Assembly: GCA_038323475.1 (NCBI GenBank)
Contig: JBBQHA010000001.1
Location: 720 to 64,719, forward strand
Length of the DNA stretch: 64,000 nucleotides
Reading direction: 5' to 3'
Origin: Lysobacterales bacterium
GTDB taxonomy: Bacteria; Pseudomonadota; Gammaproteobacteria; Xanthomonadales; Xanthomonadaceae
Part shown: positions 2,286 to 36,518 of the stretch, one piece after another
How the letters are laid out: each line of letters begins with the position of its first letter
Numbering within the stretch: the first letter of the stretch is position 1
Translations under genes and position numbers: made by a program
The notes under the pieces: model-generated
Told to the model about the DNA's origin: nothing
The model's database searches: none
What the model saw: only the letters and a program-made list of their open reading frames with translations

Positions 2286-3764
2286 CTACAATTCCCCAAG
2301 CCCGTCCGCCACGCCGTCCTTGCCCACTTCCAGCAGACGCAACGTGTTGGTTGCGCCGCGCAGTTCCATCGTGTCGCCGCTGGTGAAGATCAGCTTGTCG
2401 CCTTCGGCGAGCAGGCCGGCCCGGAACAGCACGCCGACCGCGGAACGCGCGGCGTCGCGCGGCGGCAGGCCGCGGCTGTCGAACGCGATCGGGAACACGT
2501 CGCGCATCATCGCCATCCGCCGGCGCGCGTCGGCATGGCGCGAGAGTCCGTAGATCGGCACCGATGAGCGATAGCGCGACAGGAACCGCGCGGTGCCGCC
2601 GGATTCGGTCAGCACGACCACGGCGCGCACCTTGATGTGTTCGGTCAGGAACATCGTCGCCATCGCGATCGCCTGGTCGGCCTGTTCGAGGTTGCGCTGC
2701 GCCTTCTCGAAATCGGTGTCGGCCTCGAACTGGCGCTCGGCGCCGAGGCAGATGCGCACCATCGCCTCGACCGCGCGCAACGGATGCAGGCCCGACGCCG
2801 ATTCGGCCGACAGCATCACCGCGTCGGTGCCGTCGATCACCGCATTGGCGACATCGAGGACTTCGGCGCGCGTCGGGATCGGGTGGTCGACCATCGACTG
2901 CAGCATCTGCGTCGCGGTGATGACGACGCGACTGCGCGCGCGCGTCTCGCGGATGATCTTCTTCTGCAGGCCCGGCAATTCGGCGTCGCCGATCTCCACG
3001 CCGAGGTCGCCGCGCGCGACCATCACCACGTCGGACGCATCGATGATCTCGGCGAGGTTCTCGATCGCCTCTGCGCGCTCGATCTTCGCGACCAGCGCCG
3101 CGCGCGACCCCGCCTCGCGCGCGAGCCGGCGCGCCTCGTGCATGTCCTGCGCGGAACGGCAGAACGAAATCGCCATGAAATCCACGCCGATCTTCGCCGC
3201 ATGCACGATGTCGGCGCGGTCCTTGTCGGACAGCGCGCCCAGCGACAGCCCGCCGCCGAGCCTGTTCAATCCCTTGCGATCCGACAGCACGCCATCGGTG
3301 ATCACGACGGTGCGGATGTCGGCGCCTTCGATCGCGACCACGCGCAGCGCGATCAGGCCGTCGTCGAGCAGCAGCACGTCGCCCGCATGCACGTCGTCGA
3401 CCAGCCCGAGGTAACTCATGCCGACCCGGGTTTCGTCGCCCATCGGTGCATCCGCGCGGCACATCAGGGTGAAGGCCCCGCCTTCGCGCAGTTGCACCTT
3501 GCCCTCGGCGAAGCGCTCGACGCGGATCTTCGGGCCCTGGAAATCGGCGAGCACGCCGACTTCGCGACGCAGCTCCTGCGCGATCGCGCGCACCTCGGCT
3601 GCGCGCCGCGCGTGGTCCTCCGCCAGGCCGTGCGAAAAGTTCAGCCGCACCACGTCCACGCCCGCGCGCAGCAGCGATTCGAGCACGCCGGGCGCATCGG
3701 TGGAGGGACCGAGCGTGGCAAGGATCTTGGTGCGGCGCAGCTGGTCGGTCATGACGGGATCCAT
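2286..3764 (-). CDS. pykA: pyruvate kinase
   Basis: 492 aa with RRTKILATLGPSTD, VDVVRLNFSHG, MVARGDLGVEI and ATQMLQSM motifs. Start could be the internal Met 4 codons downstream. Confidence 0.95.
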   Translation of the reverse strand: MDPVMTDQLRRTKILATLGPSTDAPGVLESLLRAGVDVVRLNFSHGLAEDHARRAAEVRAIAQELRREVGVLADFQGPKIRVERFAEGKVQLREGGAFTLMCRADAPMGDETRVGMSYLGLVDDVHAGDVLLLDDGLIALRVVAIEGADIRTVVITDGVLSDRKGLNRLGGGLSLGALSDKDRADIVHAAKIGVDFMAISFCRSAQDMHEARRLAREAGSRAALVAKIERAEAIENLAEIIDASDVVMVARGDLGVEIGDAELPGLQKKIIRETRARSRVVITATQMLQSMVDHPIPTRAEVLDVANAVIDGTDAVMLSAESASGLHPLRAVEAMVRICLGAERQFEADTDFEKAQRNLEQADQAIAMATMFLTEHIKVRAVVVLTESGGTARFLSRYRSSVPIYGLSRHADARRRMAMMRDVFPIAFDSRGLPPRDAARSAVGVLFRAGLLAEGDKLIFTSGDTMELRGATNTLRLLEVGKDGVADGLGEL

Positions 3765-3828
3765 GCATGGGGAAAACGCGTTCGCGGGTCGGACTCTACG
3801 GCATGACCGTGCGAACGACGTGTCGGAT

Positions 3829-8290: not shown

Positions 8291-8540
8291 CGTTCCTGCA
8301 CCCCGGCACCATCCATCGCTGCACAAGCTTACACAACCGCGCCGGTGCGATGCCGGGCCGGATCCTGGCGCATGCCGATGACCGCCGCTGGGTGCGTGCC
8401 GGGCCACGACCGACCCTGCGTTATCATGGGATCCGACCGCCGCCGGATGCATTCGCAATGCCGGCCTCGACATGTCCCGTGTTGCGAGTTGCCAGGCCAC
8501 GGCGGCTCGTCCTCATTCCGCTCCTGCACGAAATGGTTTG

Positions 8541-10791: not shown

Positions 10792-13014
10792 ATGAGCCCG
10801 TCCGATCCCGGCGACCGCCCTCTGTTGCGCGCCGCGCGTGCCGAAATCGAACGCCGCGATTACCAGCGCGCCGAAGCGCTGTTCCTGCAGCACGTCGCGC
10901 AGGCACGCGACGACGCGATCGGGTTGGCCGAGTACGGCATCTTCTGCCTGCGCAGCGGTCGCGCGGATTCCGCGTGCTATCTCCTGGACAAGGCGAATAC
11001 GCTGCAAGCCGGGCACCACGAATGGTTGAGCCATTCGGGCTACGCGTGCCTGGAGCAGCAGGCTTTCGAAGCCGCCCGGAGGAATTTCGAAGCTGCGCTC
11101 GCGTGCGTACCCGGAAACGCGCAGGCGAGCTACGGACTGGGCCTGTGCCACGAACATGCGGGCGCGTGGCCGGATGCGATCGCCGCGTTCGCCGGCACGC
11201 TGTCCGAACCGGGCGAAGCGCTTCCGGTCCTGCTGCACCTGGCCGATTCCTGCCACCGGGCCGGCGAACACGCGCAGGCGCGCCAGCACTACGAACATGC
11301 GCAGCGCGAAGCCCCTGACCACCCCGCATTGCTGCTCGCTTTCGGCACGTTCCTGCGCGAGCAGGGCGAGCCGGCGCGAGCGATGGCCATGATCGATCGC
11401 TGCGGCGCGATGCATCCGGACGAACCCAGGATCGTCCTCGAAAAAGCGCGCTGCCTGCGTGCGCTCGACGATGCGACGCATGCGTTGCGCTGGCTCGACA
11501 GACTCGAAAAGCTCTCGCCGGGCAAGCCGGAGACCAGCGCGGAACTGGGCGATTGCCTTGCGCATGCCGGCAGCATCGCGCTCGCGAACGCGCATTGGCT
11601 GCGGGCGATCGATCTGTGGGTCGCGGCCGGGGAACTTGCGGTGGCGGAGTCGCAGATCGAGCGCATGCTCAAGCGCGATCCGGACAATGCGGCATCCTGG
11701 AATGCGCGCGGAAACCTGGAGCGTGCCAAGCACGATTACGTCGCTGCCGAGGCCGCCTGGCGCAAGGCGCTGGGCCTGGAACCGGCGCGTCTGGATGCGT
11801 CCGCGGGCCTTGCCCTCGTGTACGAGAGCACCAACCGCGTCGTCGAAGCGAAGGCGATCGCGGAACGCGCCGCGACGGCGATCGGCAGCGGACGCGGCCA
11901 GCACGGGGCGATCGAGCTGCTGTTCGTGCTGGGCAAGACGTTGCGCCGCACGCACGATCTCGCTGGCGCGATGCGCGCGCTGGATCGGATCGATGCGCTC
12001 GCCCCGAACGAGACGCAGCGCATGGCCGCGAGCATGGAGCGCGGCAAGCTGCTCGACCTGCTCGACGACGCGCCCGGCGCGATGGCCGCCTTCGCGACCG
12101 GCAATGCGATCACGAGCGCGCGCTGGTTGCGCGGCAATCCCGGCCGCAACAAATACCTCGCCGGCGTCGACTACATGCTCGAGGCGATGCGCAGCGACTG
12201 GATACAGCGATGGAAGCCCATCGAACGCCTGTCGGAACATCCGAAGGTCGCCTTCCTGGTCGGCTTCCCGCGCTCCGGAACGACCCTGCTGAACCAGGTC
12301 CTCGACGGCCATCCGTCGATCCAGACGATCGAGGAAAAACCATCCGCATCGAAGATCACGGCGGGCCTGCGCGCGATGCCCGGGGGCTATCCGCACGCGC
12401 TCGCGGATCTCGACGCGTTCGACGTGACCTGGCTGCGCGACGCGTATTTCAGGTCGGCCGCCGAACACGGCGCGAGCGACCGCAGCAAACTGCTGCTCGA
12501 CAAGTTCCCGATGAACACTGCGCTCGCCGGGATGCTGCACCGGGTGTTGCCGCGGGCGCGCTTCGTGTTCGCGCTGCGGCATCCCTGCGACGTCGTGTTG
12601 AGTTGCTTCATGCAGAACTTCGAGCTCAACAACACGATGGCGAATTTCTGCACGCTCGCCGATACGGTGGCGCTGTACACGCGCACGATGGATCTCTGGC
12701 AGGCCTGGCGCGACGCGTTGCCGCTGGACGTGCACACGGTGCGCTACGAGGACGTCGTCGAGGACTTCGATGGGCAGGTGCGCGCCCTGTGCGATTTCCT
12801 CGGCGTGCCCTGGCAGGACGACCTGCGCGATTTCTCCGCCCGGGCGCTCGAACGCGGCAGGATCAATACGCCGAGCTACGAACAGGTCAGCCGGCCGATC
12901 TACCGCGAGGCGCTGTACCGCTGGCAACGCTACCGCGAATACCTCGAACCGTTCCTGCCCGCGCTGCAGCCGTACATCGATCGCTTCGGTTACTCCGATT
13001 CCCCGGCCTCGTGA
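10792..13014 (+). CDS. TPR-repeat sulfotransferase family protein (paralog 2)
   Basis: Same architecture as the upstream gene: FLVGFPRSGTTLLNQVL, FALRHPCDVVLSCFMQNFELN, VHTVRYEDVVEDFDGQVRALCDFL, GRINTPSYEQVSRPIYREA. Begins 17 nt after paralog 1. Confidence 0.8.
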   Translation: MSPSDPGDRPLLRAARAEIERRDYQRAEALFLQHVAQARDDAIGLAEYGIFCLRSGRADSACYLLDKANTLQAGHHEWLSHSGYACLEQQAFEAARRNFEAALACVPGNAQASYGLGLCHEHAGAWPDAIAAFAGTLSEPGEALPVLLHLADSCHRAGEHAQARQHYEHAQREAPDHPALLLAFGTFLREQGEPARAMAMIDRCGAMHPDEPRIVLEKARCLRALDDATHALRWLDRLEKLSPGKPETSAELGDCLAHAGSIALANAHWLRAIDLWVAAGELAVAESQIERMLKRDPDNAASWNARGNLERAKHDYVAAEAAWRKALGLEPARLDASAGLALVYESTNRVVEAKAIAERAATAIGSGRGQHGAIELLFVLGKTLRRTHDLAGAMRALDRIDALAPNETQRMAASMERGKLLDLLDDAPGAMAAFATGNAITSARWLRGNPGRNKYLAGVDYMLEAMRSDWIQRWKPIERLSEHPKVAFLVGFPRSGTTLLNQVLDGHPSIQTIEEKPSASKITAGLRAMPGGYPHALADLDAFDVTWLRDAYFRSAAEHGASDRSKLLLDKFPMNTALAGMLHRVLPRARFVFALRHPCDVVLSCFMQNFELNNTMANFCTLADTVALYTRTMDLWQAWRDALPLDVHTVRYEDVVEDFDGQVRALCDFLGVPWQDDLRDFSARALERGRINTPSYEQVSRPIYREALYRWQRYREYLEPFLPALQPYIDRFGYSDSPAS

Positions 13015-13795: not shown

Positions 13796-14974
13796 TCAGG
13801 CCACCGCACGCGCCTTGAGCGCGGCGACCGCCGGCAATTCCTTGCCTTCGAGGAATTCGAGGAAGGCGCCGCCGCCGGTGGAGATGTAGGACACCTTGTC
13901 GGCGATGCCGTACTTGTCGACCGCGGCGAGCGTATCGCCTCCGCCCGCGATCGAGAACGCCTGCGAATCCGCGATCGCATGCGCGAGCGTTTCGGTGCCG
14001 TGGCCGAACGCGTCGAACTCGAACACGCCGACCGGCCCGTTCCACACGACAGTGCCGGCGTCGCGGATCAATGCGGCGTAGCGCGCGCTGGTCTCCGGAC
14101 CGATGTCGAGGATCATGTCGTCGGCGCCGACATCGGCAATGCGCTTGACCGTCGCCGGCGCATCGGCAGCGAATGCCGGCGCGACCACGACGTCGGTCGG
14201 GATCGGGATCTCGGCGCCGCGCGCTTTCGCATCCGCGATGATGTTGCGCGCGGTATCGAGCAGGTCGCGCTCGCACAGCGACTTGCCGACCGGATGGCCG
14301 AGCGCGGCGAGAAAGGTGTTGGCGATACCGCCGCCGACGATGAGTTGGTCGACCTTCGACACCAGGCTGGTCAGCAGTTCGAGTTTCGTCGACACCTTCG
14401 AACCCGCGACGATCGCGAGCAACGGACGCGCAGGTTCGTGCAGGGCCTTGCCGAGCGCATCGAGTTCGGCCATCAGCAGCGGCCCGCCGCACGCGATCGG
14501 GGCCTGCCGGATCACGCCGTGGGTCGAGGCCTGCGCGCGGTGCGCGGTGCCGAACGCATCCATCACGAACACGTCGCACAACGCCGCGTATTTCTTCGAC
14601 AGCGCCTCGTCGTCCTTGCCCTCGCCGACATTCATGCGGCAGTTCTCGAGCAGGGTCAGGCTTTCCGGCGCGACATCGACGCCATCGACCCAGTCCTTCA
14701 CCAGCGGTACGTCGATGCCGAGCATTTCCGACAGGCGTTGCGCGACCGGCGCGAGCGAATCCGCCTCGCTCCACACGCCTTCCTTCGGCCGGCCGAGGTG
14801 CGACATCACCAGCACGGTCGCGCGATTGGCGAGAGCGTGCTTGAGTGTCGGCAGCGAAGCCGCGATGCGCTGTTCGGAGGTGATGCGGCCGTTGTCTAGC
14901 GGCACGTTCAGGTCCTGCCGGATCAGTACGCGCGTGCCCTTCAGATCGAGGTCGGTCATGCGCAGGATGGTCAT
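13796..14974 (-). CDS. pgk: phosphoglycerate kinase
   Basis: 392 aa with [45 protein letters not shown] and [14 protein letters not shown] motifs. Confidence 0.95.
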
Positions 14975-15183: not shown

Positions 15184-15579
15184 CTAGGAGGAAATCTGGT
15201 TGCTGTCGATGCGTCGCACGGGGGCGGCTGGCACTGGAACCGATGGGGGCGGCAAGATCGCCAACCTGGCATGGCTGCGCACAGGCGCGACCGGAGCGGC
15301 ATTGCGGCCCTTGGTCAACACCCTGGACAGGCGCTTGAGGGTCATGATGAATCCGCGCCCTGCGATGACTTTCGGAGTCTCGATCGCTTCGGCGGTCGGA
15401 TCGCCATCCGATCCCCGCCACGACTGCACGCGGTCGACGTCGTAGTCGGCCCAGCGCGAGTGGAAGATGCCGTTGGCGAAGGTTCCGTGGATCGCCTGCT
15501 TGCGATCTTCGAGCATGAACTCGATCGGCTCACCCGTGTAGGGCAGGAAGGTCGAGCTGAAGATCCATTTCGTTTGCAT
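15184..15579 (-). CDS. hypothetical protein
   Basis: ORF 15184..15609, trimmed to MQTKWIFSSTFLPYTGEPIEFMLEDRKQAIHGTF. No recognisable family. The coding call rests only on ORF length and codon bias. Confidence 0.4.
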   Translation of the reverse strand: MQTKWIFSSTFLPYTGEPIEFMLEDRKQAIHGTFANGIFHSRWADYDVDRVQSWRGSDGDPTAEAIETPKVIAGRGFIMTLKRLSRVLTKGRNAAPVAPVRSHARLAILPPPSVPVPAAPVRRIDSNQISS

Positions 15580-15728
15580 GACGCGGCTCCCCGCCAGCGA
15601 CGCGCGCATCCCGCGCGCGAGGCGGTCGCGTCCTTGCGACCATTCGCTAGATCCTTGCGTGGCCCCGTCCCTAGGGCACAGCTTCCAGATCCTTCATCGC
15701 AATGGTGTGCGTTCTATCGGAAGCGGTC

Positions 15729-15763: not shown

Positions 15764-16480
15764 TCAGCAGCCGAGTAAGCTCGTGTAGGCGTCGCGATCG
15801 ATGCGGTAGCAGGCGCAGGAAACCGCTTCCAGGCCGGAGCGGTCGAGGATCGTGATCGTGCCGCGCGTGTAGCTGATCAGGCCTCTGTCCTGCAGCGCAC
15901 CTGCGGCCTTGGTGATTCCGACGCGGCGCATCCCGAGCATGTAACCGAGGAATTCCTGGGTCAGGTGGAAGGTGTCGCTGGACGAGCGGTCGTGGGTCAT
16001 CAGCAGCCAGCGCGCGACCCGCGCCTCGAGCAGGTGGAAACGCGTGCACGCGCCGGCCTGCGCCATCTGCGACATCAGCACATACACGTAGCGATCCAGC
16101 AGGCGCCGCAACGACGCATTGCGCGCGAGTTCGCGCCGGAACGCGGTGGCGTCCATGCGCAATGCCGAGCCCGCACCTTGCACGAGCGCGCGTTGCGGCG
16201 CGACGTCGACACCCAGCACCAGCGAAATGCCATGCATGCCCTCGCAACCGACCATGCCCACCTCGAAGCCGGCCTGGTGGTCGATCGGCGTGATCAGCGA
16301 GATGAAGCTTCCGATCGGGAAATACACATGATCGATGCGGTCGCCGCGTTCGCAGAGCACATCGGACTCGACGAGGTCCACCTCGTCGCAATGGGCGATC
16401 AATCGTTGCCGGTCGACATGCGGCAGGCGGGCGAGCAGGTGGTTCGCGGGAACCGGGGGCGCATTGGCGCGCAATGACAT
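15764..16480 (-). CDS. Crp/Fnr family transcriptional regulator (paralog 1)
   Basis: Start trimmed to MSLRANAPP (ATG at 16478-16480). cNMP-binding-like beta-roll (DHVYFPIGSFISL, GMVGCEGMHG), C-terminal HTH LTQEFLGYMLGMRRVGITKAAGALQDRGLISYTRGTITILDR, then the tail SCACY. Confidence 0.8.
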   Translation of the reverse strand: MSLRANAPPVPANHLLARLPHVDRQRLIAHCDEVDLVESDVLCERGDRIDHVYFPIGSFISLITPIDHQAGFEVGMVGCEGMHGISLVLGVDVAPQRALVQGAGSALRMDATAFRRELARNASLRRLLDRYVYVLMSQMAQAGACTRFHLLEARVARWLLMTHDRSSSDTFHLTQEFLGYMLGMRRVGITKAAGALQDRGLISYTRGTITILDRSGLEAVSCACYRIDRDAYTSLLGC

Positions 16481-16658
16481 GATGGACGGCCTGTGGTGGC
16501 GTTGGAGAACCCAACGGCCGGCACAAGGAGGATTCCATTCCAAATGTCGGATCAGCGGTGAATGAACGCACGATGCGTCCGGGACGACTATACACACTCC
16601 GAACTTCACGAAAATCGTGCGCAGCGCTTCCATTCATCTTCAACAACGCGATGCGGAC

Positions 16659-17399
16659 TCAAGCAGGCGTGAGTGGATTCGCGCTCGCCGTCGTGTCCCA
16701 CGGCAGCAGGCGCATGTATTCGCTGCGCACCGCCTCGTAGCATTCGCAGGCCAGTCTTTCCAGTTGCACACGGTCGAGCACGGTGATGCGGCCGCGCTGG
16801 TAGCGGATCGCACCCGCCTGCTGCAGCTTTCCGGCTGCTTCGGTCACGCCCTCGCGGCGCACGCCGAGCATGTTGGCGATGAGCTCCTGGGTCATGCTCA
16901 AGTCGCTGCCCGGCAAACGATCGATGCTCATCAGCAGCCAGCGGCATAGCTGCTGGTCCAGATTGTGGTGGCGATTGCATACCGCGGTCTGGCCGATCTG
17001 CATCATCAGGGCCTGGCTGTAACGCAGCAGGATCTGCTGGGCGGCTCCGGCACGCTCGAATTCCTTGCGCAGGTCGCGCGCCTGCATGCGCATCGCGACC
17101 CCGGCGGCCTGCACGATCGCGCGGTGTGGGGACTTGCTGCCACCAGTGATCACCGGCATCCCGACGAGGCCGTCGTTTCCGATGATCGCGACTTCGGCGG
17201 TGTCGCCGTCCTCCAGCACGTAGAGCAGCGACACCACGCAATCGATCGGGAAATACACCTGCGTCTGCGAAGCACCCGCTTCATGGACCACCATCCCGAG
17301 CGGCATCGGCACCGGCTCCAGGTACGCGGCGAGGCGCTCGCGCTCGTCGGCCCGGATCGAGTCGAGAATGTGGTTGGATTTCCTGCCGTTCTTGAACAC
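16659..17399 (-). CDS. Crp/Fnr family transcriptional regulator (paralog 2)
   Basis: 246 aa: QVYFPIDCVVSLLYVLEDGDTAEVAIIGNDGLVG, TAVCNRHHNLDQQLCRWLLMSIDRL, HTH MTQELIANMLGVRREGVTEAAGKLQQAG, GRITVLDR, ACECY. Confidence 0.85.
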   Translation of the reverse strand: MFKNGRKSNHILDSIRADERERLAAYLEPVPMPLGMVVHEAGASQTQVYFPIDCVVSLLYVLEDGDTAEVAIIGNDGLVGMPVITGGSKSPHRAIVQAAGVAMRMQARDLRKEFERAGAAQQILLRYSQALMMQIGQTAVCNRHHNLDQQLCRWLLMSIDRLPGSDLSMTQELIANMLGVRREGVTEAAGKLQQAGAIRYQRGRITVLDRVQLERLACECYEAVRSEYMRLLPWDTTASANPLTPA

Positions 17400-17486
17400 G
17401 AAAACACCCGCATGCGAATGGAGGTCGGGGACCAGAACGGCAAGACCCCTTGGTACCGAAGTTTATCTGCGGATTTCGGCCTGCTA

Positions 17487-17502
17487 TGTACGCTGACGCA
17501 CA
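17487..17502 (-). promoter_or_regulatory. CRP/FNR-like 16-bp box B (reverse strand TGTGCGTCAGCGTACA)
   Basis: 15/16 identical to box E. Lies 88-103 nt upstream of the Crp paralog 2 start. A -10-like TAAACT (17460-17465, reverse strand) sits 22-27 nt past the box on the gene side, which is class II CRP promoter geometry. Confidence 0.5.
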
Positions 17503-17919
17503 TAACCGATTTTCGTTTCGTGCATGCTCAGCGCCCCTGCACGAAGCGGCAGCATTCGACGCGTTCGCACCGACCACAGCGCAGGATATTGCGCACGGGA
17601 GACCCGCTCCGGCGGCAAGCAGCAACCAGATGATTTCCCGACGCGCACGCCATGTCGTCCGCGCGCGCCACTACGCGAATGCGCCAGTACGGCCGTTGTG
17701 ACCTCGCTGGAGCCGACAATGATCCTGGCAATGGGCGACGTGGTGCCGATGATCGCGCTCGCGATCCGGCTGCCGATCGCGCAGATGAACCAGCGGGTGC
17801 GCTGAGGGAATAAGGGCGCCTGCAGGCCAGGCATGGCTCCTCTGGCTTTGCCGCTCAGCGCGCCATCGTGAATCGAATCGTCCAGGTCATTAAGCTTGGC
17901 TCTCTGATCGGCCACTCTG

Positions 17920-17935
17920 CGTACGCTAACGCACG
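17920..17935 (-). promoter_or_regulatory. CRP/FNR-like 16-bp box C (reverse strand CGTGCGTTAGCGTACG)
   Basis: 13/16 identical to box B. Lies upstream of the GT2 synthase gene. A -10-like GAAAAT at 17957-17962 sits 22-27 nt past the box toward the gene. Confidence 0.45.
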
Positions 17936-18003
17936 GTGGCGCCCTTCCTGCGCCCCGAAAATGGCCGACCGCGACAAGGCCGCGATACGTCGACTGCGCA
18001 TGC

Positions 18004-19479
18004 GTGCAGTTGATTCGATGGCTTCGGTCCATTCCAGAGCGATCCCTGCAGATGACGACGGTCCCCCCCACCGTGGGTACTGGTGCGCACGACGAAATCA
18101 TGTCGGGCGAACCGCTACGATCCGGCCCGATGCGTCCGGGCCGGAGAAGTGACGGCCGCGGCATCTACCTTCCGGTGACGCTGAAGTTCGCAATCGCCTT
18201 GTCCGTCGCAATCGCTTGGTGCGTGCTGAGTATGTGGCTGTCGGAACCGTGGGTACGCGACCTGGCGAGGGTGACAGGGTGGCCGCTGGCGATCTTCGTG
18301 ATCACTTTCATCGCCTATGTGCCCGGTTTCATGAATGCGTTCCTGATCACGACGATTGCGCTGGATCGGCGCCCCAGGCGAGACCCGGTGGATCGCTATC
18401 CGGACATCAGCATTCTTGTCGCCTGCTTCAATGAGGCCGGCAAGATTGCCGACACCATCGGCAGCCTCGCATTGCAGCAGTATCCAGGACGCATGGAAGT
18501 CTTGCTTCTCGACGATGGATCGACGGACGCCACGATCGCGGTGGCGCATGCGGCGATTGCGGCCGCCACGGCGCAACCGGGACACACATTCCGGGTTGTC
18601 GTTGGCGGCAGCAATGTCGGCAAGGCGGGCGTGCTCAATCGCGGCCTGGCGATGGCTACCACCGACATCATCCTGACCATCGACGGCGATTGCTGGGTGT
18701 ACCAAGACGCGGTTCAACGACTGGTCGGGCGATATCTCAGCGACCCGCCCGGCACGCGGGCAGTTGCGGGCGCCGTGCTGGTGAGCAATTCACGCCAAAA
18801 CTGGCTGACCAAAGCGCAGGAGTGGGACTATTTCCATGGCATAGCCGCGGTAAAGCGCATGCAGAGCATGTACCACGGCACGCTCGTCGCGCAGGGCGCC
18901 TTTTCGCTGTACGACCGCGACGCGCTGAACGAGGTCGGCGGTTGGCCCGCCTGCGTCGGGGAGGACATCGTGGTGACATGGGCGTTGCTGGAACAGGGCT
19001 ATCGGGTCGGGTATTGCGAGGATGCGATCGCGTTCACCAATGTCCCCGAAAAACTCAAGATCTTCGCATTGCAGCGCAAACGCTGGTCGCGCGGCCTGAT
19101 GGAGGCATTCAAGCTGCATGGCGGCCTGCTGTTCAAGCCGCGACTGACCACGTTGTTCATCTGGTGGAACCTGCTGTTCCTGCCGCTCGACCTGGTCTAC
19201 ACGTTCGCGTTCATTCCCGGCCTGGTGCTGGCGCTGTTCGGCTACTTCTACCTTGCCGGCATCCTCACCTTGCTGGTGTTGCCGCTGGCAGCGCTGTGGA
19301 ACTACTGCATCTTCGTGGTGCAAAACCGGATGTTCAAGCGACAGGACCTGAAGGTACGCCGCAACGCTGGTGGCTTCCTGTTTTATGCGCTCGGCTATTC
19401 GCTGCTGATGCAGCCGGTGTGCGTGTGGGGCTACGTTGCCGAATTGCTTGGCATGAGCAAACGCTGGGGTACCAAATGA
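18004..19479 (+). CDS. processive family-2 glycosyltransferase (PgaC/IcaA/NodC-like polysaccharide synthase), integral membrane
   Basis: ISILVACFNEAG, LLLDDGSTDAT (DxD), TIDGDCW, VGEDIVVTW and the Q(R/Q)xRW motif QRKRWSRG, followed by C-terminal TM helices. The true start is uncertain; Met codons occur at 18004, 18052, 18100 and 18130. Confidence 0.85.
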   Translation: MQLIRWLRSIPERSLQMTTVPPTVGTGAHDEIMSGEPLRSGPMRPGRRSDGRGIYLPVTLKFAIALSVAIAWCVLSMWLSEPWVRDLARVTGWPLAIFVITFIAYVPGFMNAFLITTIALDRRPRRDPVDRYPDISILVACFNEAGKIADTIGSLALQQYPGRMEVLLLDDGSTDATIAVAHAAIAAATAQPGHTFRVVVGGSNVGKAGVLNRGLAMATTDIILTIDGDCWVYQDAVQRLVGRYLSDPPGTRAVAGAVLVSNSRQNWLTKAQEWDYFHGIAAVKRMQSMYHGTLVAQGAFSLYDRDALNEVGGWPACVGEDIVVTWALLEQGYRVGYCEDAIAFTNVPEKLKIFALQRKRWSRGLMEAFKLHGGLLFKPRLTTLFIWWNLLFLPLDLVYTFAFIPGLVLALFGYFYLAGILTLLVLPLAALWNYCIFVVQNRMFKRQDLKVRRNAGGFLFYALGYSLLMQPVCVWGYVAELLGMSKRWGTK

Positions 19480-20378
19480 TATTTCGAACCGTGCGAGGCC
19501 TGATCGCAGCGATCGCAGTGGTGGTGTCGGTGTCGGCGCATGCAGGTGGATACGGCGGCGTCGAGGGCTTCCTCTCCAGCGACGCCGATGGCACCGAGAT
19601 CGCGAAAACCGCACTGGATCTGGATTTCCGGCATGCGGACGGCGAACATTACCAGGGCATGTCGCTGGAACAGGCTCGATTCCGGCCGTTCGGACAGGGT
19701 TGGATCGGGGATCGCCGCGCCTACTGGCGCTTCGCAGATGGCGGCGGGCAATGGAAGTGGAACGGCCGGATCGGCACCGATGGGCGCACGCTGCTCGGCA
19801 ACGCGTCCATCCACAATGAAGTCCCGCGCCGGCAGGAATACTTCCTCGAACGCGAGATCGTCGAAACGCCGCTTGGCTTGCAGCGCGACATCTACTCCAC
19901 CTACACAGGCGCGGCATACGACCTGCCCTTCGACGACCGCAACATCCTCACCACCGTGCTGGGCGTCCAGGATTTCAGCGGGCGCAATGTGCGCCTGCAA
20001 TATCGCGGCAATTTCGTGCATGTCATCGCGCCCGCCTGGGGATTCAGCGCCCAGTTGCGGCTGCGCTACTTCCATGACAGCAATCCGCACGAGTTCGACT
20101 ATTTCTCGCCGCGCTGGTACGCGGAGGCGATACCCACGCTGCAGCTGCGGCGATTTCGTGCCGGCTGGCGCTATGCCATCGCGGCCGGATACGGTCGGCA
20201 GCGCGCCGCCGATTCAGGCTGGCACGATGCGCGGATATTCGTGGCTGCGGTGACCAGTCCGAAGGAAGGGCATGACTGGTTCTTCCAGGCGGGGTTCACC
20301 TACGCCAATACCCCCGTCAATAGCGGATTCACCTACGACTACAAGCAGCTGACGTTTTCGATCGGGCGTTCCTTCTAG
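19476..20378 (+). CDS. predicted outer-membrane beta-barrel protein (putative polysaccharide export porin)
   Basis: Start ATG 19476 overlaps the synthase stop (ATGA). Signal peptide MIFRTVRGLIAAIAVVVSVSAHA. Alternating aromatic/polar beta-strand-like segments. Terminal residues FSIGRSF end in Phe, as in OMP beta-signals. Confidence 0.6.
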   Translation: MIFRTVRGLIAAIAVVVSVSAHAGGYGGVEGFLSSDADGTEIAKTALDLDFRHADGEHYQGMSLEQARFRPFGQGWIGDRRAYWRFADGGGQWKWNGRIGTDGRTLLGNASIHNEVPRRQEYFLEREIVETPLGLQRDIYSTYTGAAYDLPFDDRNILTTVLGVQDFSGRNVRLQYRGNFVHVIAPAWGFSAQLRLRYFHDSNPHEFDYFSPRWYAEAIPTLQLRRFRAGWRYAIAAGYGRQRAADSGWHDARIFVAAVTSPKEGHDWFFQAGFTYANTPVNSGFTYDYKQLTFSIGRSF

Positions 20379-20559: not shown

Positions 20560-21279
20560 TCACGGCGTCATCGTTGCCGGCAGCAGGCGGTCGTATTCGT
20601 CCTTGACCACGGCATAGCACTCGCACGTGCGTCGTTCGAGCCCAGGTCGGTCGAGCACGGTGATTCGGCCACGCCGGTAGTTGATGAGCCCGGCCTGATG
20701 CAGGTTGCCGGCTGCCTCGGTGACGCCTTCGCGGCGCACGCCGAGCATGTTGGCGATGAGTTCCTGCGTCATCACCAGTTCGTTCGATTGCAGGCGGTCG
20801 AGGCTCAACAGCAGCCAGCGGCACAACTGCTGGTCGAGCGAGTGGTGGCGGTTGCAGACTGCCGTCTGCGACATCTGGGTGATCAATGCCTGGGTGTAGC
20901 GCAGCAGCAGGTGCAATGCGGGGCCTGCCCGGTCGAACTCCTCCATCAGCATGTTCGCCTTCAGCCGATAGCCGTGCCCGGCGCTCTGCACGACCGCACG
21001 GCTCGGCGTCGAATTGCCGCCCATGAACAGCGAAATGCCGACGACCCCTTCATACCCGACGATCGCGATCTCGGCCGAGGAGCCGTTTTCCATCACGTAC
21101 AACAGCGAGACGATCGAGGTCGTCGGGAAATAGACATGGGCCAACTTGTCGCCCGACTCGTAGAGCACCTTCCCCAGCGGCATGTCCACGCTCTCGAGGT
21201 ACGGCAGCAAGCGCTGCCATTCGGCATCGGGAAGCGCCGCAAGCAGTCCGTTATGGCGCGGGTCGGCAGTGACGCTCAT
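20560..21279 (-). CDS. Crp/Fnr family transcriptional regulator (paralog 3)
   Basis: Start trimmed to MSVTADPRHN (ATG at 21277-21279). HVYFPTTSIVSLLYVMENGSSAEIAIVGYEGVVG, TAVCNRHHSLDQQLCRWLLLSLDRL, MTQELIANMLGVRREGVTEAAGNLHQAG, GRITVLDR, TCECY. Clearly paralogous to 16659..17399. Confidence 0.85.
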   Translation of the reverse strand: MSVTADPRHNGLLAALPDAEWQRLLPYLESVDMPLGKVLYESGDKLAHVYFPTTSIVSLLYVMENGSSAEIAIVGYEGVVGISLFMGGNSTPSRAVVQSAGHGYRLKANMLMEEFDRAGPALHLLLRYTQALITQMSQTAVCNRHHSLDQQLCRWLLLSLDRLQSNELVMTQELIANMLGVRREGVTEAAGNLHQAGLINYRRGRITVLDRPGLERRTCECYAVVKDEYDRLLPATMTP

Positions 21280-21418
21280 CCGCACCTCATGCGCCGCAAG
21301 GTCGTCGAATCCGGCATTGCGGAGGGGTTCGCGCAGTGCCGATCGGAAAGAACGATTTTGGACCTGCCCAGCAGCCACCGCAACACGGCAGCGCACGGAT
21401 ATCCGACAAGCCGGGGCG

Positions 21419-21811: not shown

Positions 21812-22243
21812 ATGGACAGGCAATTCCCAGTCTTCGCACCGCTCGGACGTCTTTACGATCCGCTGCCGCAATTGGCCGAGCGCGTCCATCGCGCCTTGCT
21901 GATCAAGGAGAAGATCGTCTGGACCGACAACAATGGCTACGTTTTCGCGACTCCGACGGATGGCCTGCGGACGATCGCGCCGCACGCGACCATCGGTGTC
22001 TTTGCGAAGTGGACGCCATTGCCGATGATCGAAACGGGCTTGCGGGTCGCGTTGCGCGAACGCGCGAGTGCGTGGATCGTGGACTGGAAGGCGCAATCGC
22101 CGGGCAAGCGGGGTGATGGCATCCAGATCATCCGGTTCGCGCCAGCGCGCAAGCGCCGGCGCAAGGCGACCGACGGGGCGACCCGGGCGACACTGCCGAA
22201 TGTCCATGTCCCGCAACCCGACCCATTGCAATCGCGGCTGTAG
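21812..22243 (+). CDS. hypothetical protein
   Basis: 143-aa ORF tail (MDRQFPVFAPLGRLYDPLPQLAERVH...) with GC3-biased codons and a basic C-terminus (ARKRRRK). No recognisable family. Confidence 0.4.
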   Translation: MDRQFPVFAPLGRLYDPLPQLAERVHRALLIKEKIVWTDNNGYVFATPTDGLRTIAPHATIGVFAKWTPLPMIETGLRVALRERASAWIVDWKAQSPGKRGDGIQIIRFAPARKRRRKATDGATRATLPNVHVPQPDPLQSRL

Positions 22244-22356: not shown

Positions 22357-23949
22357 TCAATGCACGTTGAGCGCGCTCCAGGCTGCATTGACGGCCTTGT
22401 ATTGCGTCGACGTCCCGCCGTACAGGTCCTTCGCCGCATACAGGGTCGCGGTGCGCGCGGCGTGGTAATCGGTGGCTGAGGTCATGTACACGGTCAGCGC
22501 GCGATACCAGATCTTCGCGGCCGCGGTACGGCCGATGCCCTTGAGCGTGCTCGGACCATGGCACACCAGGTCGGCCGGGGTGAGGCCGAACCCGTTGACG
22601 ACCGGGACGACGCTGCCTTCGGCGAGCAGGTAGTAGAAGTGATTCGCCACGCCGGACGAATAGTGCACGTCCAGGTAGTGCTGGAAGAAGTCGAGGTAGT
22701 CCGGATCGGTCGGATAGCAATCCGGCGAGATGCCGTCCAGGCTGGGCTTGAACATCGAGCGCAACGCGGAGTTCCCGGTGTTGCCGATGAACAGCTTCTC
22801 GCCGATCAGGTAGTTCGGCGGGTTGGCCGGATTGTTCGCGTAGAACTCGACCATCGTGCCCATCATGTCGGAATTGGCTTCGTTGAGCCCGCCCGACTCG
22901 CCTTCGTAGGCGAGATTCGCGGTGCGCGCGGTGACGCCGTGGCTCATCTCATGACCGGTAATGTCGATCGCGGTGAACGGGTTCGTGTTGACGCCGTCGC
23001 CGTCGCCGAAGGTCATGCAGAAGCAGTCGTCGTTCCAGAACGCGTTCGAGAAGTTCTTCTGGAAATGCACGCGGGCAAGCGCGCCGACACCGTCGTTGGC
23101 GACACCCGCACGGCCATGGACATTGAGGTAGTAGTCCCAGGTCTGGCCGATGCCGTAATGCGCGTCGACTGCGACGGTTGCGCGATCGGACAGCGCGAAG
23201 TTGCCCCAGACATTGTCGGCATCGACGACGAGCACGCCGTTGCCGCGGAATGAGTTGCCCATGTCGGTGGTGTAGCCACCGCCGCGGGTCGGATCCTTCA
23301 TCTCGTAGTAACCGCGGCTGTTGCGTTGTGTATTCAGCGCGACCGTGCCCGCCTGCAGCGAATGGCCGCTGCCGACGACCGGCGTTCCGGAGCCGACGGT
23401 TTCGACCGTGTCCCAGTTGGCGATGATCGTCCCGCTGTCCGCATCGACGTAGTAATGCATGCGGGTCGGCGTGCGGTCCGCGCGGGTGCCGACGAACAGC
23501 ACCTCGTACGCGAGCCTCGGTACGCCGCCGCGCGCATAGACCACGAGGCTCGCGGTCGGCAGCCCTTCGAAGCCGGTGCCGAACACGACCCCGGCGCGGA
23601 CGATCGCCTCGTCGGCTGTCAGGCGCGGATGCGTCGCCACGTCGATCGGCTTGGCGAGCGTCATGCTCACGCCGCCGAATCCACCGGCGGTCGTGTGGAC
23701 CACCATGTCGCCGCCGATCACGCGCAGGCCGCGGAACGTGCGGTCGAAGCGCACGTGCTGGTCGCCGTTGGGATCGACGATCACGTCGCGCGTCACGAAT
23801 GCGTCGCTGCCGGAGGCATGCGCGAGGACCGGGTTCGCACGGATCAGCGCGAGCGCACGACCAACCATCTGGCCGTTGTTCGCGGCGTGTGCCTGCGCAC
23901 CGAGCGCGGCGGTCAATGCAAGCAGCAGGACTTGTTTGCGGAACGCCAT
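22357..23949 (-). CDS. secreted M4 (thermolysin-like) zinc metalloprotease
   Basis: Start at MAFRKQVLLLALTAALGAQAHA (signal peptide; ATG 23947-23949, GGAGAGG upstream). HEMSHGV zinc motif and downstream GGLNEANSDMMG third-ligand motif. Propeptide-like N-region. Confidence 0.9.
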   Translation of the reverse strand: MAFRKQVLLLALTAALGAQAHAANNGQMVGRALALIRANPVLAHASGSDAFVTRDVIVDPNGDQHVRFDRTFRGLRVIGGDMVVHTTAGGFGGVSMTLAKPIDVATHPRLTADEAIVRAGVVFGTGFEGLPTASLVVYARGGVPRLAYEVLFVGTRADRTPTRMHYYVDADSGTIIANWDTVETVGSGTPVVGSGHSLQAGTVALNTQRNSRGYYEMKDPTRGGGYTTDMGNSFRGNGVLVVDADNVWGNFALSDRATVAVDAHYGIGQTWDYYLNVHGRAGVANDGVGALARVHFQKNFSNAFWNDDCFCMTFGDGDGVNTNPFTAIDITGHEMSHGVTARTANLAYEGESGGLNEANSDMMGTMVEFYANNPANPPNYLIGEKLFIGNTGNSALRSMFKPSLDGISPDCYPTDPDYLDFFQHYLDVHYSSGVANHFYYLLAEGSVVPVVNGFGLTPADLVCHGPSTLKGIGRTAAAKIWYRALTVYMTSATDYHAARTATLYAAKDLYGGTSTQYKAVNAAWSALNVH

Positions 23950-24130
23950 CGTCTTTTCCTCTCCGGGTTGTCGGGGCGATTGCTGCGGACGCAACAATCC
24001 ATCATTCGAACGATCAGTGTGCGGGACGCCGCACGCGGAACAGCCCCCCATTTCAGGGGGGACGCGATCGGCGGCAGGCTGTTCCACTGGTCATGCCTGC
24101 ACCCAGCGGGCGCCGCACACAGAGGCCCGC

Positions 24131-24707: not shown

Positions 24708-26960
24708 TTACCAGCTGAAGCCCGCGCCGGCGTTGATGCTGCTTTCACTATCGCTGAAGGCCCCGCCGATCGAGATGCTGGCGTGGTTGTTGTTGAACGC
24801 GCGTTGATAGCCGACCGCAAAGGCTTGCTGGCCGCCCTGGTTGCCGAAACCCACTCCGACCCGATTTGCGCCCGCCAGGCCGGAGGTGTTCATCGCCATC
24901 CCGGAGAGCGCCGATCCCATCGCACCGATCGTGCTGATGCGGCGATCCTGGAGCGCGAACCGGTTGTCGACGCTGATCGACAGCGCGCCCATCGCGCCGG
25001 TGGTGAAGTTGTTGGCGGAGGCCAGGGTGGACGCATCGCCGGCCTGCATCTGCGACAGGTTCACCGCATCGTTGGCGCCAGTGCCCGCAGCGACATTGAC
25101 GATGCGGCGTCCATTTCCAGCGCTGCCCACCGAGACAGTGTTGGCCTGGTTGGCCACCGATCCCGCGCCGAGCGCGACGGCATTGGTGGCGTCGGCCGCG
25201 ACCGAACTGTTGGCGCCGAACGCCGAACTGGAATCGCCGAGCGCCTGCGCGCTGCTGCCCATGGCCGTACTGTCAACGCCGGTTGCGAGCGCCAATGAAC
25301 CGGCTGCGGTCGAATGGGCGCCGCTTGCGTTCGCGTCATCGCTGCCATCGGCGGGACCGGAGGCCTTGAAATAATGCTGGGCCGTCGCGACGCCGGAGGA
25401 GAGCGCATTCAGCTGTTCCATGGTTGCCGCATCGTGCGCATCGGTGCCGTCGGCGATGTTGGTGATTTGCCGATACATTCCGGTGCTCGCATCGCCTACC
25501 GAAACCGTGTTCGCGCGGGTTCCGGTCGAGGAATAGCTGCCCAGCGCGACGCTGTTGTCGGCCGATGCGGTGGCATGCGCGCCAAGCGCGGTGCTGACCG
25601 CGCCCGAGGCCGTGCTGCCTGCACCGCTTGCAGTGCTGTTCGATGCGGAAGCCGTGCTGCCTGCGCCGGTTGCGGTGCTGCTGTCGCCGGACGCCGTGCT
25701 CATCGCGCCGGTGGCGCTCGCATAGGCGCCGCTCGCGCTGCTCCTGTAACCAGTGGCATTGCTGCCGATGCCCGCTGCCGTGCTGTAAGCGCCGAGCGCC
25801 GAACTGAAATCGCCGGTCGCCGTGCTGGTATCGCCGAGCGCCGTGCTCGATGTTCCCGCCGCAACCGCTGCCGAGCCGATCGCGGTACTGGAGTCGCCGA
25901 TCGCGACGCTATACGCACCATTCGCCGTGCTGAGATTGCCGAGCGCATGGCTGTAGGCGCCTTCGGCGGAACTGAAGTCGCCGAGCGCCACGCTGTACGC
26001 GCCGGTTGCATTGCTGTGACCGCCGGTCGCCTGTGCATACACGCCGTTGGCCGTGCTGAAGTCGCCGAGCGCGCTGCTGTAGGCGCCGGTCGCCGTGCTC
26101 GCAAAACCGGATGTGTAGGTGTGGTTGCCGGTAGCCGTGGAGAAATCGCCGCCCGCGTATGCGGCAGCGCCGGTAGCGCTGGAGAACTTGCCCAGGGCCG
26201 TGCTGTAGGTGCCCGCGGCATGGCTGCCATAGCCGATCGCATAGCTGCCGGCTCCGGTTGCATCGCTCCTGATGCCATATGCGAGCGAGTGATACCCCGT
26301 GGCTGTCGACACATTGCCGATGGCATCGGCACCCGCACCGGTCGCAGTGGAATAGTTGCCGAGTGCGTGAGCATTCGCGCCGGTTGCGGTGGAAGCGCCA
26401 CCCAGCGCGTAGGCGGCGCCGGTCGCCGTGCTGAAATCGCCGACGGCATGACTGCCTGTGCCGATCGCGGCGGCGAAGATGCCTTCGGCCTTGGCACCAA
26501 GCCCGATCGCAGTACTATAGGCGCCGGTGGCCTGGCTGAAGTTGCCGATCGCGGTCGCGTAACCCTTCTCATTTCCGCCGTTCTGCCCGCTGTTCGAGCC
26601 GCTCGCGTTGGCGTAGGCGCCGATCGCCACGCTGTTGTTGTAGGCGTAGGAGTGGTAGCCGATCGCAGTCGAGGCTGCCCGGAACCCATATCCACCGGAC
26701 ACGCGATCGGCAGACCGCGCGTATGCCCCGATCGCGATCGCGCCGTTCGCCGCACCGACGGTTCCCGCCGAGCTGCCGTAGCCGACCGATGTGCTGTATC
26801 CGCCGACCGCATTGCCGTTCGCGCATTCGGTGCTGGTGCCGTCGTCGCAATCCTGCGCGAGCGCGATGGTTGGCGCGACGCCCATCGCAACCAATACGGC
26901 AGCTGCGAGCAGGGTGCGAGCATGGCAGCTCGAGCGAAGGGTGCGTCGGACGATGGTCAC
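24708..26960 (-). CDS. trimeric autotransporter adhesin (YadA/Hia-like)
   Basis: C-terminal YadA anchor (ISTIGAMGSALSGMAMNTSGLAGANRVGVGFGNQGGQQAFAVGYQRAF...AGAGFSW). Long head-motif array (xSTAxG units) and neck-like segments (VSVGDASTGMYRQITNIADG, VSVGSAGNGRRIVNVAAG). Start assigned to GTG 26958-26960 (VTIVRRTLRSS...AVLVAMGVAPTIALA) with GGAG 7 nt upstream; ORF-track residues upstream of that look non-coding. Confidence 0.85.
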   Translation of the reverse strand: MTIVRRTLRSSCHARTLLAAAVLVAMGVAPTIALAQDCDDGTSTECANGNAVGGYSTSVGYGSSAGTVGAANGAIAIGAYARSADRVSGGYGFRAASTAIGYHSYAYNNSVAIGAYANASGSNSGQNGGNEKGYATAIGNFSQATGAYSTAIGLGAKAEGIFAAAIGTGSHAVGDFSTATGAAYALGGASTATGANAHALGNYSTATGAGADAIGNVSTATGYHSLAYGIRSDATGAGSYAIGYGSHAAGTYSTALGKFSSATGAAAYAGGDFSTATGNHTYTSGFASTATGAYSSALGDFSTANGVYAQATGGHSNATGAYSVALGDFSSAEGAYSHALGNLSTANGAYSVAIGDSSTAIGSAAVAAGTSSTALGDTSTATGDFSSALGAYSTAAGIGSNATGYRSSASGAYASATGAMSTASGDSSTATGAGSTASASNSTASGAGSTASGAVSTALGAHATASADNSVALGSYSSTGTRANTVSVGDASTGMYRQITNIADGTDAHDAATMEQLNALSSGVATAQHYFKASGPADGSDDANASGAHSTAAGSLALATGVDSTAMGSSAQALGDSSSAFGANSSVAADATNAVALGAGSVANQANTVSVGSAGNGRRIVNVAAGTGANDAVNLSQMQAGDASTLASANNFTTGAMGALSISVDNRFALQDRRISTIGAMGSALSGMAMNTSGLAGANRVGVGFGNQGGQQAFAVGYQRAFNNNHASISIGGAFSDSESSINAGAGFSW
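25530..26810 (-). repeat. intragenic tandem array of degenerate 7/14-codon head repeats in the adhesin gene
   Basis: The protein reads ...GAYSTAIG, GDFSTATG, GNYSTATG, GNVSTATG, GTYSTALG, GDFSTATG, GAYSSALG, GDFSTANG, GAYSVALG, GDFSSAEG, GNLSTANG, GDSSTAIG, GTSSTALG, GDTSTATG, GDFSSALG... The DNA shows the matching 21/42-nt periodicity. Confidence 0.8.
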
Positions 26961-27253
26961 GATAAGTCTCCTCAGGGATGGACGATGGCCGGACCCGGGA
27001 CTCCGGGCGCGATGCGCGGATGTGCGATGCGCGCATGCCGGCCGCAAGTAATCCCGGCGACGATAGAGCAAACATGCCGATACGCGACGTGATATCCGCG
27101 AATACCCCCCGCGCCGGGGGGGCATTTCGGGCCAGCGGTACGGTGCCAGACCAGCGCTAGCCGGAAAACCGTGACGCAATCGAGCATCGTCGATCCATCG
27201 AGACGGCCTGGACGGTATCGATGCGCCATCCGAAGTCGATGAAGTACCGAAGT

Positions 27254-27410
27254 TGTGCGCTCTCAGGCCTGCTTGTGCGATTACCGAACATGGCATGTGC
27301 GACTGCCGGCATGTTTGTGCGATTACCGCACACAAATCGCGGCGACATCGTGCAGAATCCGCACGCCATTTCGTGCGCCCAATGTGTCGATTAGCGACGC
27401 GACGCACACA
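27254..27410. promoter_or_regulatory. phased TGTGCG / CGCACA repeat array (candidate operator cluster) in the adhesin-luxR divergent region
   Basis: TGTGCG hexamers start at 27254, 27274, 27296 and 27316 (spacing 20, 22, 20 bp). A 14-bp perfect direct repeat TTGTGCGATTACCG occurs at 27273-27286 and 27315-27328. Dyad TGTGCG-N5-CGCACA at 27316-27332. Degenerate copy TGTGTCGATTAGCG at 27383-27396, with CGCACA at 27403-27408. Confidence 0.4.
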
Positions 27411-27647
27411 TTCCGCCGCGCTTCGGACGGGTCGATCGGTTACGCTTGCATGCGGCATCGACGATGCAATCCGCCGACCGGTTTCACTTCGACGGTCATA
27501 TCGTTTGGCAGACAAGAAACATGCGACGCAGGTTTTGACATGACCTCCCTCACCCCGCCATCGGCGCCGCCGATGGTTCCCCCCTCTCCCGCGTAGCAGG
27601 AGAGCGAGGATCGCGTCGCTTCACGACTTTCACGTTGATGGCGAGAC

Positions 27648-32356: not shown

Positions 32357-32542
32357 CCGGTTCCGGAATCGCCGCCCGCCGCAGTGGTGCCGCTCGCGAA
32401 GACAAATCAGCAAGCACTGGAAACCGCCCGTCAAAACGCGCACCGTGTCCGGGTCATCCACTGGACGACGTTGGCCAGTGCATGCATGGCGTGCGCGCAG
32501 GTCGTTCCTGCCGGCCTTCGCCATGTCCCGGGGAGAAACACG

Positions 32543-35441: not shown

Positions 35442-36518
<1,077 letters not shown>

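Follow-up and report, generated by a model that had tools for sequence, protein, structure and literature searches.

Whether a surface polysaccharide can be made and exported by a synthase and a pore without further parts is the question raised by a pair of overlapping genes in the DNA analysed here, a 64,000-nucleotide stretch of contig JBBQHA010000001.1 (assembly GCA_038323475.1) from a Lysobacterales bacterium, which is referred to below in its full length as the window. A canonical synthase-dependent exopolysaccharide system is composed of a synthase, a cyclic di-GMP (c-di-GMP)-binding part, periplasmic modifying enzymes, and a tetratricopeptide repeat (TPR) domain together with a pore (PMC7112194), whereas the pair under study consists of a synthase and a pore only. 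Both open reading frames (ORFs) are carried by the plus strand: the first, at 18052-19479, encodes a 475-aa glycosyltransferase of family 2 (GT2), and the second, of 300 codons at 19476-20378, encodes a predicted outer-membrane β-barrel of 16 strands. The pair is probably a self-contained synthase-dependent polysaccharide module, a variant lacking the TPR part as well as PgaB and PgaD, and among machines of this kind, which produce a surface polysaccharide and export it, it looks to be the smallest known. An earlier, sequence-only reading of the same letters had begun the GT2 at GTG 18004, the first GTG of the ORF, which is probably 48 nt too early; the start at ATG 18052 is likelier because the resulting form is matched with 100% identity and coverage by a 475-aa protein-database entry and because the closest homologues are 473-476 aa long. 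The G+C content of the pair region (0.61-0.63) is slightly lower than that of its flanks (0.65-0.68).

The family relations of the GT2 bear directly on what it might make. Pfam searches returned Glycos_transf_2, Glyco_tranf_2_3, Glyco_trans_2_3, and Chitin_synth_2, with 97, 89, and 70 bits for the GT2-family models, 54 bits for Chitin_synth_2, and 37 bits for Glyco_transf_21; the NCBIfam ranking is headed by PgaC_IcaA (151 bits), followed by NodC (109), an XrtG-associated glycosyltransferase (99), and CelA (69), all of which fall far under their cut-offs. Alignment with E. coli PgaC gave 32% identity over 279 residues (E 6e-33), and annotation pipelines of the Joint Genome Institute (JGI) already name the protein 'PgaC'. 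Such likenesses are what would be expected if the pair were a stripped-down pga system making poly-β-1,6-N-acetylglucosamine, whose deacetylase of the PgaB type, PgaD-like subunit, or TPR scaffold is encoded elsewhere. The score against the PgaC/IcaA equivalog model TIGR03937, however, is 151.4 bits, spread over model positions 28-315 of 407, against a curated cut-off of 422.3, and the clade to which the GT2 belongs is 51-83% identical internally, which makes it a separate orthologous group.

The motif set of a processive synthase, which had been read off the letters beforehand, was found, and DDG, DGD, GED, and QRKRW are invariant among 42 homologues. In order along the protein, these are DDGSTD (residues 154-159, positions 18511-18528), the UDP-binding Asp motif in which D155, G156, S157, and D159 are invariant; DGD (residues 211-213, 18682-18690), the DxD metal/nucleotide-sugar motif; GED (residues 303-305, 18958-18966), which holds the putative catalytic base, aligns with TED of E. 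coli PgaC and stands at the TED position of BcsA as well; and QRKRW (residues 341-345, 19072-19086), the QxxRW acceptor-binding motif, which aligns with QRLRW of PgaC. An AlphaFold2 model of the enzyme (predicted local distance difference test, pLDDT, 80.9; predicted template-modelling score, pTM, 0.81) places a disordered N-terminus of 34 residues before two membrane helices (residues 42-63 and 77-103; 18175-18360, also evident from hydropathy and translation), a GT-A domain, a long interface helix bearing QRKRW (335-361), and a C-terminal membrane region (residues 365-465; 19144-19446) of three helices (365-395, 403-430, and 439-465), two of which are clearly hydrophobic and the third less so. 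The same layout is found in E. coli PgaC. When the model was compared with the Protein Data Bank (PDB) by Foldseek, BcsA was the top match, and with it ranked the Chlorella-virus and Xenopus hyaluronan synthases, plant CesA, and chitin synthases (E 1e-15 to 1e-10, TM-scores about 0.5-0.6), in agreement with the processive-synthase fold that the sequence-only reading had assumed. The helices predicted around the catalytic domain would, as far as the model goes, be those of a synthase that forms a channel for its polymer, and we infer that the GT2 is processive. Neither a PilZ nor another receptor domain was found in the GT2 by Pfam and NCBIfam, nor any c-di-GMP-binding domain in either protein.

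A different product has nevertheless to be considered. The GT2 could be a glycolipid or short-oligosaccharide enzyme, forming glycosyl-ceramide, glycosyl-diacylglycerol, or NodC-like oligomers that the barrel would then handle at the outer membrane; it matches the ceramide glucosyltransferase family Glyco_transf_21 of Pfam at 3e-9, NodC is its second NCBIfam match, and its top match among PDB sequences is a small archaeal membrane mannosyltransferase. QxxRW also occurs in the non-processive enzymes of family GT21. Against this stand the structural comparisons, in which the strongest matches are processive synthases with a channel, and the Pfam scores given above, in which the GT2-family models far exceed the GT21 model; the nature of the barrel and the range of carriers, described below, bear on it too.

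The extreme C-terminus of the GT2 reads KRWGTK, in which K470, W472, T474, and K475 are invariant among the 42 homologues. Within it, WGTK (19465-19476) is retained across the 80 loci described below despite synonymous codon changes, and this synonymous variation indicates that it is the protein motif that is under selection. The gating loop of BcsA has the form FxVTxK, and the C-terminus of PgaC is ...RARWVSPDRGILRG. In hyaluronan synthase, WGTR is the essential motif of the gating loop, and it is also a signature of chitin synthases (PMC11750622, PMC8434796). By this resemblance, the Trp-containing tail of the GT2 may be a gating loop; it is modelled at low confidence (pLDDT <50), and the C-terminal fragment used as a query returned no match among PDB sequences. 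The barrel gene has its start codon within the last four GT2 codons and the stop (19465-19479), and this segment includes a G-rich run as well, 9-12 nt upstream of that start; the position is the same in loci L006-L085.

The barrel protein begins with the signal peptide MIFRTVRGLIAAIAVVVSVSAHA (19476-19544), which is seen as a helix of residues 2-18 in the model, is cleaved after AHA, and has no lipobox Cys; it ends in SIGRSF, with a terminal Phe that is at least 90% conserved, so that the signal peptide and the C-terminal Phe named at the outset as expected for an outer-membrane porin are both present. Homologues number 360, nearly all of them 290-310 aa long and unnamed. An AlphaFold2 model built on 41 homologues (pLDDT 90.9, pTM 0.82) has 16 strands, none of the loops between them exceeding 12 residues, and with such short loops the protein has no periplasmic domain; an N-terminal periplasmic TPR domain was looked for in the model and none was found, the mature protein, 277 of the 300 aa once the 23-aa signal peptide is removed, being barrel throughout. 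In Foldseek comparisons the highest TM-scores were obtained with PgaA (4y25, 0.68/0.71, root-mean-square deviation 5.0), BcsC (0.63-0.65), and PelB (0.62), which are the three solved polysaccharide-secretion barrels, and general porins reached 0.41-0.46. The 16-strand, PgaA-like barrel that structure prediction had been expected to reveal is thereby borne out at the level of the predicted fold. It resembles polysaccharide-secretion porins and not lipid transporters, which speaks against the handling of a glycolipid.

A relation to PgaA can also be traced in sequence, although by an indirect route. Among Pfam families, PF21197 (PgaA_barrel) is the sole one matched by the barrel family, in 10 of 41 members, the best match among these relatives lying at the threshold (E 2.8e-6, 27.1 bits against a cut-off of 27). 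Direct comparisons by hhalign gave E 0.05 between the family and E. coli PgaA alone and, against a 13-sequence PgaA alignment, a probability of 3.7% in another register; the family profile returned one match among PDB sequences, a spurious one. An exhaustive search, however, yielded a diverged branch of ~300-aa barrels. This branch aligns with the window family over its full length at 100% probability; its match to an alignment of PgaA barrels has a probability of 87% (E 3.8e-6) and runs through the shared motifs FSDxNxR and Y(F/Y)NP. Since this branch matches both the window family and the PgaA barrel, homology between the two is transitive, and the barrel appears to be homologous to that of PgaA in sequence, in a remote but consistent manner. 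In the window barrel the two motifs read FSGRNVR (19974-19994), in which F167 and R173 are invariant and G169 and N171 at least 90% conserved, and DYFSP, within PHEFDYFSP (20085-20111), a segment of the predicted sixth extracellular loop in which E206, D208, Y209, and P212 are invariant and which is the counterpart of YFNP/YYNP in PgaA-type barrels. The exhaustive search gave 300 representative clusters, of which the best 150 are nearly all stand-alone proteins of ~300 aa or fragments, and none of these 150 has the length of PgaA.

The pairing of the two genes was followed across genomes. With PHEFDYFSP as the search pattern, a scan of one genome per species gave 162 barrel relatives, so that the pair is carried by at least 162 species-level genomes; the locus counts that follow refer to the best 80 of the 162. 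These 80 loci belong to Lysobacterales (Lysobacter, Luteimonas, Arenimonas, Pseudoxanthomonas, Vulcaniibacterium, and Solilutibacter), Caulobacterales (Brevundimonas and Phenylobacterium), and Sphingomonadales (Sphingopyxis, Sphingobium, Sphingomicrobium, Novosphingobium, Qipengyuania, and Allosphingosinicella), plus a few others. An orthologous GT2, 50-81% identical to that of the window, stands immediately upstream of the barrel gene on the same strand in all 80. The ATGA of the window (19476-19479, with ATG at 19476-19478 and TGA at 19477-19479) was correctly recognised as a stop/start overlap, which implies translational coupling, and overlapping codons are kept in 73 of the 79 scorable loci, as (A/G)TGA in 69 and TGATG in 4. 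The pairing far exceeds chance.

This result weighs against the idea that a porin of the general or the uptake type lies beside a glycosyltransferase by chance and without any functional link. OmpG does have the best Foldseek E-values, and the window barrel matches no curated family; but an adjacency that holds in 80 of 80 loci and in five of five from the diverged branch, with the codon overlap kept across orders while the neighbourhoods change, and TM-scores that are higher for PgaA, BcsC, and PelB than for porins, make this explanation highly improbable. The list of carriers also offers the glycolipid proposal an argument, because many of them are Sphingomonadales and Caulobacterales, which make glycosphingolipids; Lysobacterales, however, carry the pair too, and with the structural evidence on synthase and barrel taken into account, a glycolipid or short-oligosaccharide product is quite unlikely.

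The surroundings of the pair, by comparison, are variable. When all ORFs of at least 90 aa in the 7-kb flanks of 81 loci were clustered, no third conserved gene emerged, the next cluster after the pair and its antisense shadows being present in only 16 of 81, and no small ORF (at least 40 aa, within 1.5 kb) is common to more than 9 of the 81. In Solilutibacter and in a Lysobacter metagenome-assembled genome the pair has hisS and argH on its two sides, and in Sphingomonas sabuli it has queA and tgt; an AraC-type gene adjoins it in the closest relative, which carries a GT2 of 80% identity. Identities to the window GT2 are 66.5% for Lysobacter concretionis, 66.8% for Luteimonas terricola, and 66.8% for B. 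diminuta, and because the Lysobacterales enzymes are no closer than the Brevundimonas ones, horizontal spread of the cassette is pointed to. No PgaB, PgaD, BcsB, TPR, or PilZ-type gene was found beside the pair among the scanned genes of the window, and none is conserved beside the pair in the 80 genomes, as the initial remark on lacking accessory genes had supposed. The possibility raised with it, that the pair is a fragment of a larger operon, was not borne out by the neighbourhood survey, in which the pair is intact in 80 of 80 loci amid differing flanks: the pair is itself the unit that is conserved and mobile, and no remnant of something larger.

Five loci of the diverged branch, reached by exact-protein look-ups, extend the pairing further. 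Their barrels are 25-28% identical to that of the window, their upstream GT2s 51-58%, and the genes overlap in all five; as the barrel has drifted while the GT2 and the overlap were kept, the synthase appears as the constrained partner and the pairing as old. In one of these loci (L090), two small genes without a Pfam match, of 100 aa (2871-3173) and 199 aa (3236-3835), lie 3' of the barrel gene in the same orientation; the clade of the window lacks them.

The same survey bears on the stripped-down pga system introduced above. In its favour, the helix layout of the synthase is that of PgaC, the nearest relative of the barrel is PgaA, and environmental bacteria with an arrangement that lacks both pgaB and pgaD, which may or may not be the present module, are noted in a published survey of pga operons (PMC7112194); in the supplementary tables of that survey, Brevundimonas, Sphingopyxis, and Phenylobacterium are listed solely as genomes examined and not among the operons found. 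On the other hand, the pair moves between unrelated neighbourhoods and bacterial classes without an accessory gene in tow. Among the scanned genes of the 64-kb window there is no carbohydrate esterase family 4 (CE4) deacetylase, GH13-like, or PgaD-like gene, and a PgaB/IcaB deacetylase is likewise absent from the annotated flanks of the relatives. Together with the low score against the PgaC/IcaA model, these findings make a pga system with missing parts encoded elsewhere unlikely.

If the pair is a self-contained module, its operation can be proposed as follows. The inner-membrane GT2, of PgaC-type architecture, would take a UDP-sugar from the cytoplasm, extend the chain at the GED/QRKRW site, and push it through its own membrane helices into the periplasm; the stop/start overlap would set a fixed ratio of barrel to GT2; the barrel would be secreted and inserted by the β-barrel assembly machinery (BAM) as a compact 16-strand pore of the PgaA/BcsC/PelB kind; and this pore would give the polymer its passage across the outer membrane. 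As the module has no accessory part, the polymer would exit unmodified, and control would be transcriptional or exerted in trans. The sequence-only reading had held that neither polymer nor export route could be predicted: the first half of that statement stands, and the second has given way, inasmuch as the predicted fold now allows a porin of the PgaA superfamily to be named as the route. A best guess for the polymer, put at a little under even, is one of the N-acetylglucosamine (GlcNAc) type, because UDP-GlcNAc is the donor used by each of the three best-scoring families, PgaC/IcaA, NodC, and chitin synthase, but the GT2 belongs to none of them. It may further be proposed, tentatively, that the two proteins by themselves make up a whole trans-envelope machine and represent an additional type of synthase-dependent secretion, in which a synthase of PgaC architecture passes an unmodified polymer to a TPR-less 16-strand porin with no periplasmic scaffold, modifier, PgaD-like subunit, or built-in c-di-GMP receptor, and that has spread horizontally between Alpha- and Gammaproteobacteria as a two-gene cassette.

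Several observations weigh against a self-contained polysaccharide module. E. coli PgaC requires PgaD, and export of poly-N-acetylglucosamine requires PgaB; to our knowledge, a system without both is unprecedented, and the pair may depend on unlinked genes outside the reach of this analysis, a divergent unlinked PgaD/IcaD-like co-subunit being possible alongside the null result for small ORFs given above. The product of the GT2 cannot be named, because the enzyme scores so far below the PgaC/IcaA equivalog cut-off; its best PDB sequence match is the Pyrobaculum mannosyltransferase, and both QxxRW and the cellulose-synthase-like fold occur in non-processive enzymes too. As to the barrel, OmpG comes first by Foldseek E-value, though with a TM-score of ~0.5; the window barrel itself has no Pfam or NCBIfam match; the direct profile comparison of its family with PgaA is not significant; and a crude tally of the residues that face the lumen (16 basic, 12 acidic, and 14 aromatic) gives no usable charge signature for a polymer. 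Moreover, no description of the pair was found in the literature searched.

Comparison with known systems places the module near several of them without coinciding with any. It shares with pgaABCD/hmsHFRS the synthase architecture and motifs and a 16-strand pore that is nearest to PgaA, and it departs from them in lacking the PgaB deacetylase/hydrolase and PgaD, in a porin of 300 aa without TPR where PgaA has 807 aa and only a remote sequence relation to it, and in a gene order of synthase followed by porin with overlapping codons. Similarly, the Bcs (BcsA/BcsC) and Pel (PelF/PelB) systems combine an inner-membrane synthase with a 16-strand outer-membrane barrel, but the module has no counterpart of PilZ, BcsB, BcsZ, PelC, or the TPR superhelix, and CelA is matched at 69 bits only. 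E. coli NfrB/NfrA, the N4 glycan receptor, is another small synthase-dependent system of a GT2 synthase and an outer-membrane protein; NfrB binds c-di-GMP through a C-terminal domain, NfrA possesses a large periplasmic portion, and the epimerase NfrC is needed, so that by description the module, which has none of these three, is unlike it. Stand-alone, TPR-less homologues of the PgaA barrel are known from Myxococcus, where WzpX, WzpS, and WzpB, with 18 strands, export polysaccharides together with Wza-type proteins for outer-membrane polysaccharide export (OPX) in Wzx/Wzy pathways (PMC9603273). The barrel of the module is likewise stand-alone and TPR-less, yet it has 16 strands and is partnered by a synthase, with no conserved OPX gene in the vicinity. 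The xagABCD locus of Xanthomonas, from the same bacterial order as the window, is also a glycosyltransferase-based locus for a biofilm polysaccharide, with four genes (PMC3609779), and XagB-like proteins have been annotated as monoglucosyl-diacylglycerol-synthase-like (PMC4643136); as an identity for the pair it was set aside, by description only, as a four-gene system. The promonan pathway of Sphingomonas is Wzy-dependent and was set aside as unrelated.

The part of the window that runs from pgk (13796-14974) to gapA (35442-36446) is variable, and the pair is located within it. Three paralogous Crp/Fnr-type regulators with HTH_Crp_2 domains, all on the minus strand (15764-16633, 16659-17399, and 20560-21300), surround it; they are mutually 40-60% identical, and two have a weak cyclic-nucleotide-monophosphate (cNMP)-binding domain. 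The Crp/Fnr flank noted in the sequence-only reading is thus present here, but it is no feature of the module, since homologues of these regulators occur within 7 kb of the pair in none of the 80 loci and are absent beside the closest relative too; it looks like a local regulatory acquisition. Two 141-aa ORFs without a Pfam match lie just outside the Crp/Fnr genes, at 15184-15609 (minus strand), with a strong coding-type G+C content at third codon positions (GC3), and at 21818-22243 (plus strand). In the 650-nt gap before the GT2 gene, GC3 climbs to 0.77-0.83 at 17620-17800, as in a short gene; only unconvincing ORFs fit this segment, namely 17524-17805 (plus strand) and part of 17484-18164 (minus strand), and Rfam has no match there. 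Rfam gave no match in the whole window, nor, at permissive thresholds, in the 650 nt upstream of the GT2 gene, from which it follows that there is no c-di-GMP or other riboswitch; promoter and terminator scans gave nothing informative.

Downstream of the pair, the variable part also contains a cluster of surface and secreted factors: an M4 thermolysin-like protease with an FTP/PepSY propeptide (22357-24087, minus strand), a YadA-type trimeric autotransporter adhesin (24708-27515, minus strand), and, beyond a MalT/LuxR-type regulator (27648-30320), a classical autotransporter with Big_1 and DUF7507 domains (32384-35266, plus strand). Among the genes scanned, none close to the pair encodes a deacetylase, a glycoside hydrolase, a TPR-porin, or a PilZ or GGDEF protein. 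Farther away, two tandem proteins of ~750 aa (8472-10775 and 10792-13014, both plus strand) combine N-terminal TPR repeats with a C-terminal Sulfotransfer_3 domain, the second of them having no obvious signal peptide. At 59379-60626 (minus strand), adjoining a PilQ-type secretin (60670-62958), is a protein with cyclic-nucleotide-binding and EAL (c-di-GMP phosphodiesterase) domains, which could possibly link cNMP and c-di-GMP signalling in this organism.

Current models of synthase-dependent secretion, derived from cellulose, poly-N-acetylglucosamine, alginate, and Pel, count the TPR scaffold and usually a modifying enzyme and a c-di-GMP receptor as core parts. The present pair is under clear selection for co-translation, and if it works as proposed, a two-gene cassette without those parts would reveal the real minimum of synthase-dependent secretion and would be the simplest available system for reconstituting the passage of a polymer across two membranes. 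Because automatic annotation names the synthase 'PgaC' and the porin 'hypothetical', the module is hidden from operon surveys. In Lysobacter, Luteimonas, Brevundimonas, Sphingopyxis, and Sphingobium, which are common genera of soil and water or associated with plants, the pair may be the source of a matrix or surface glycan that has gone unrecognised.

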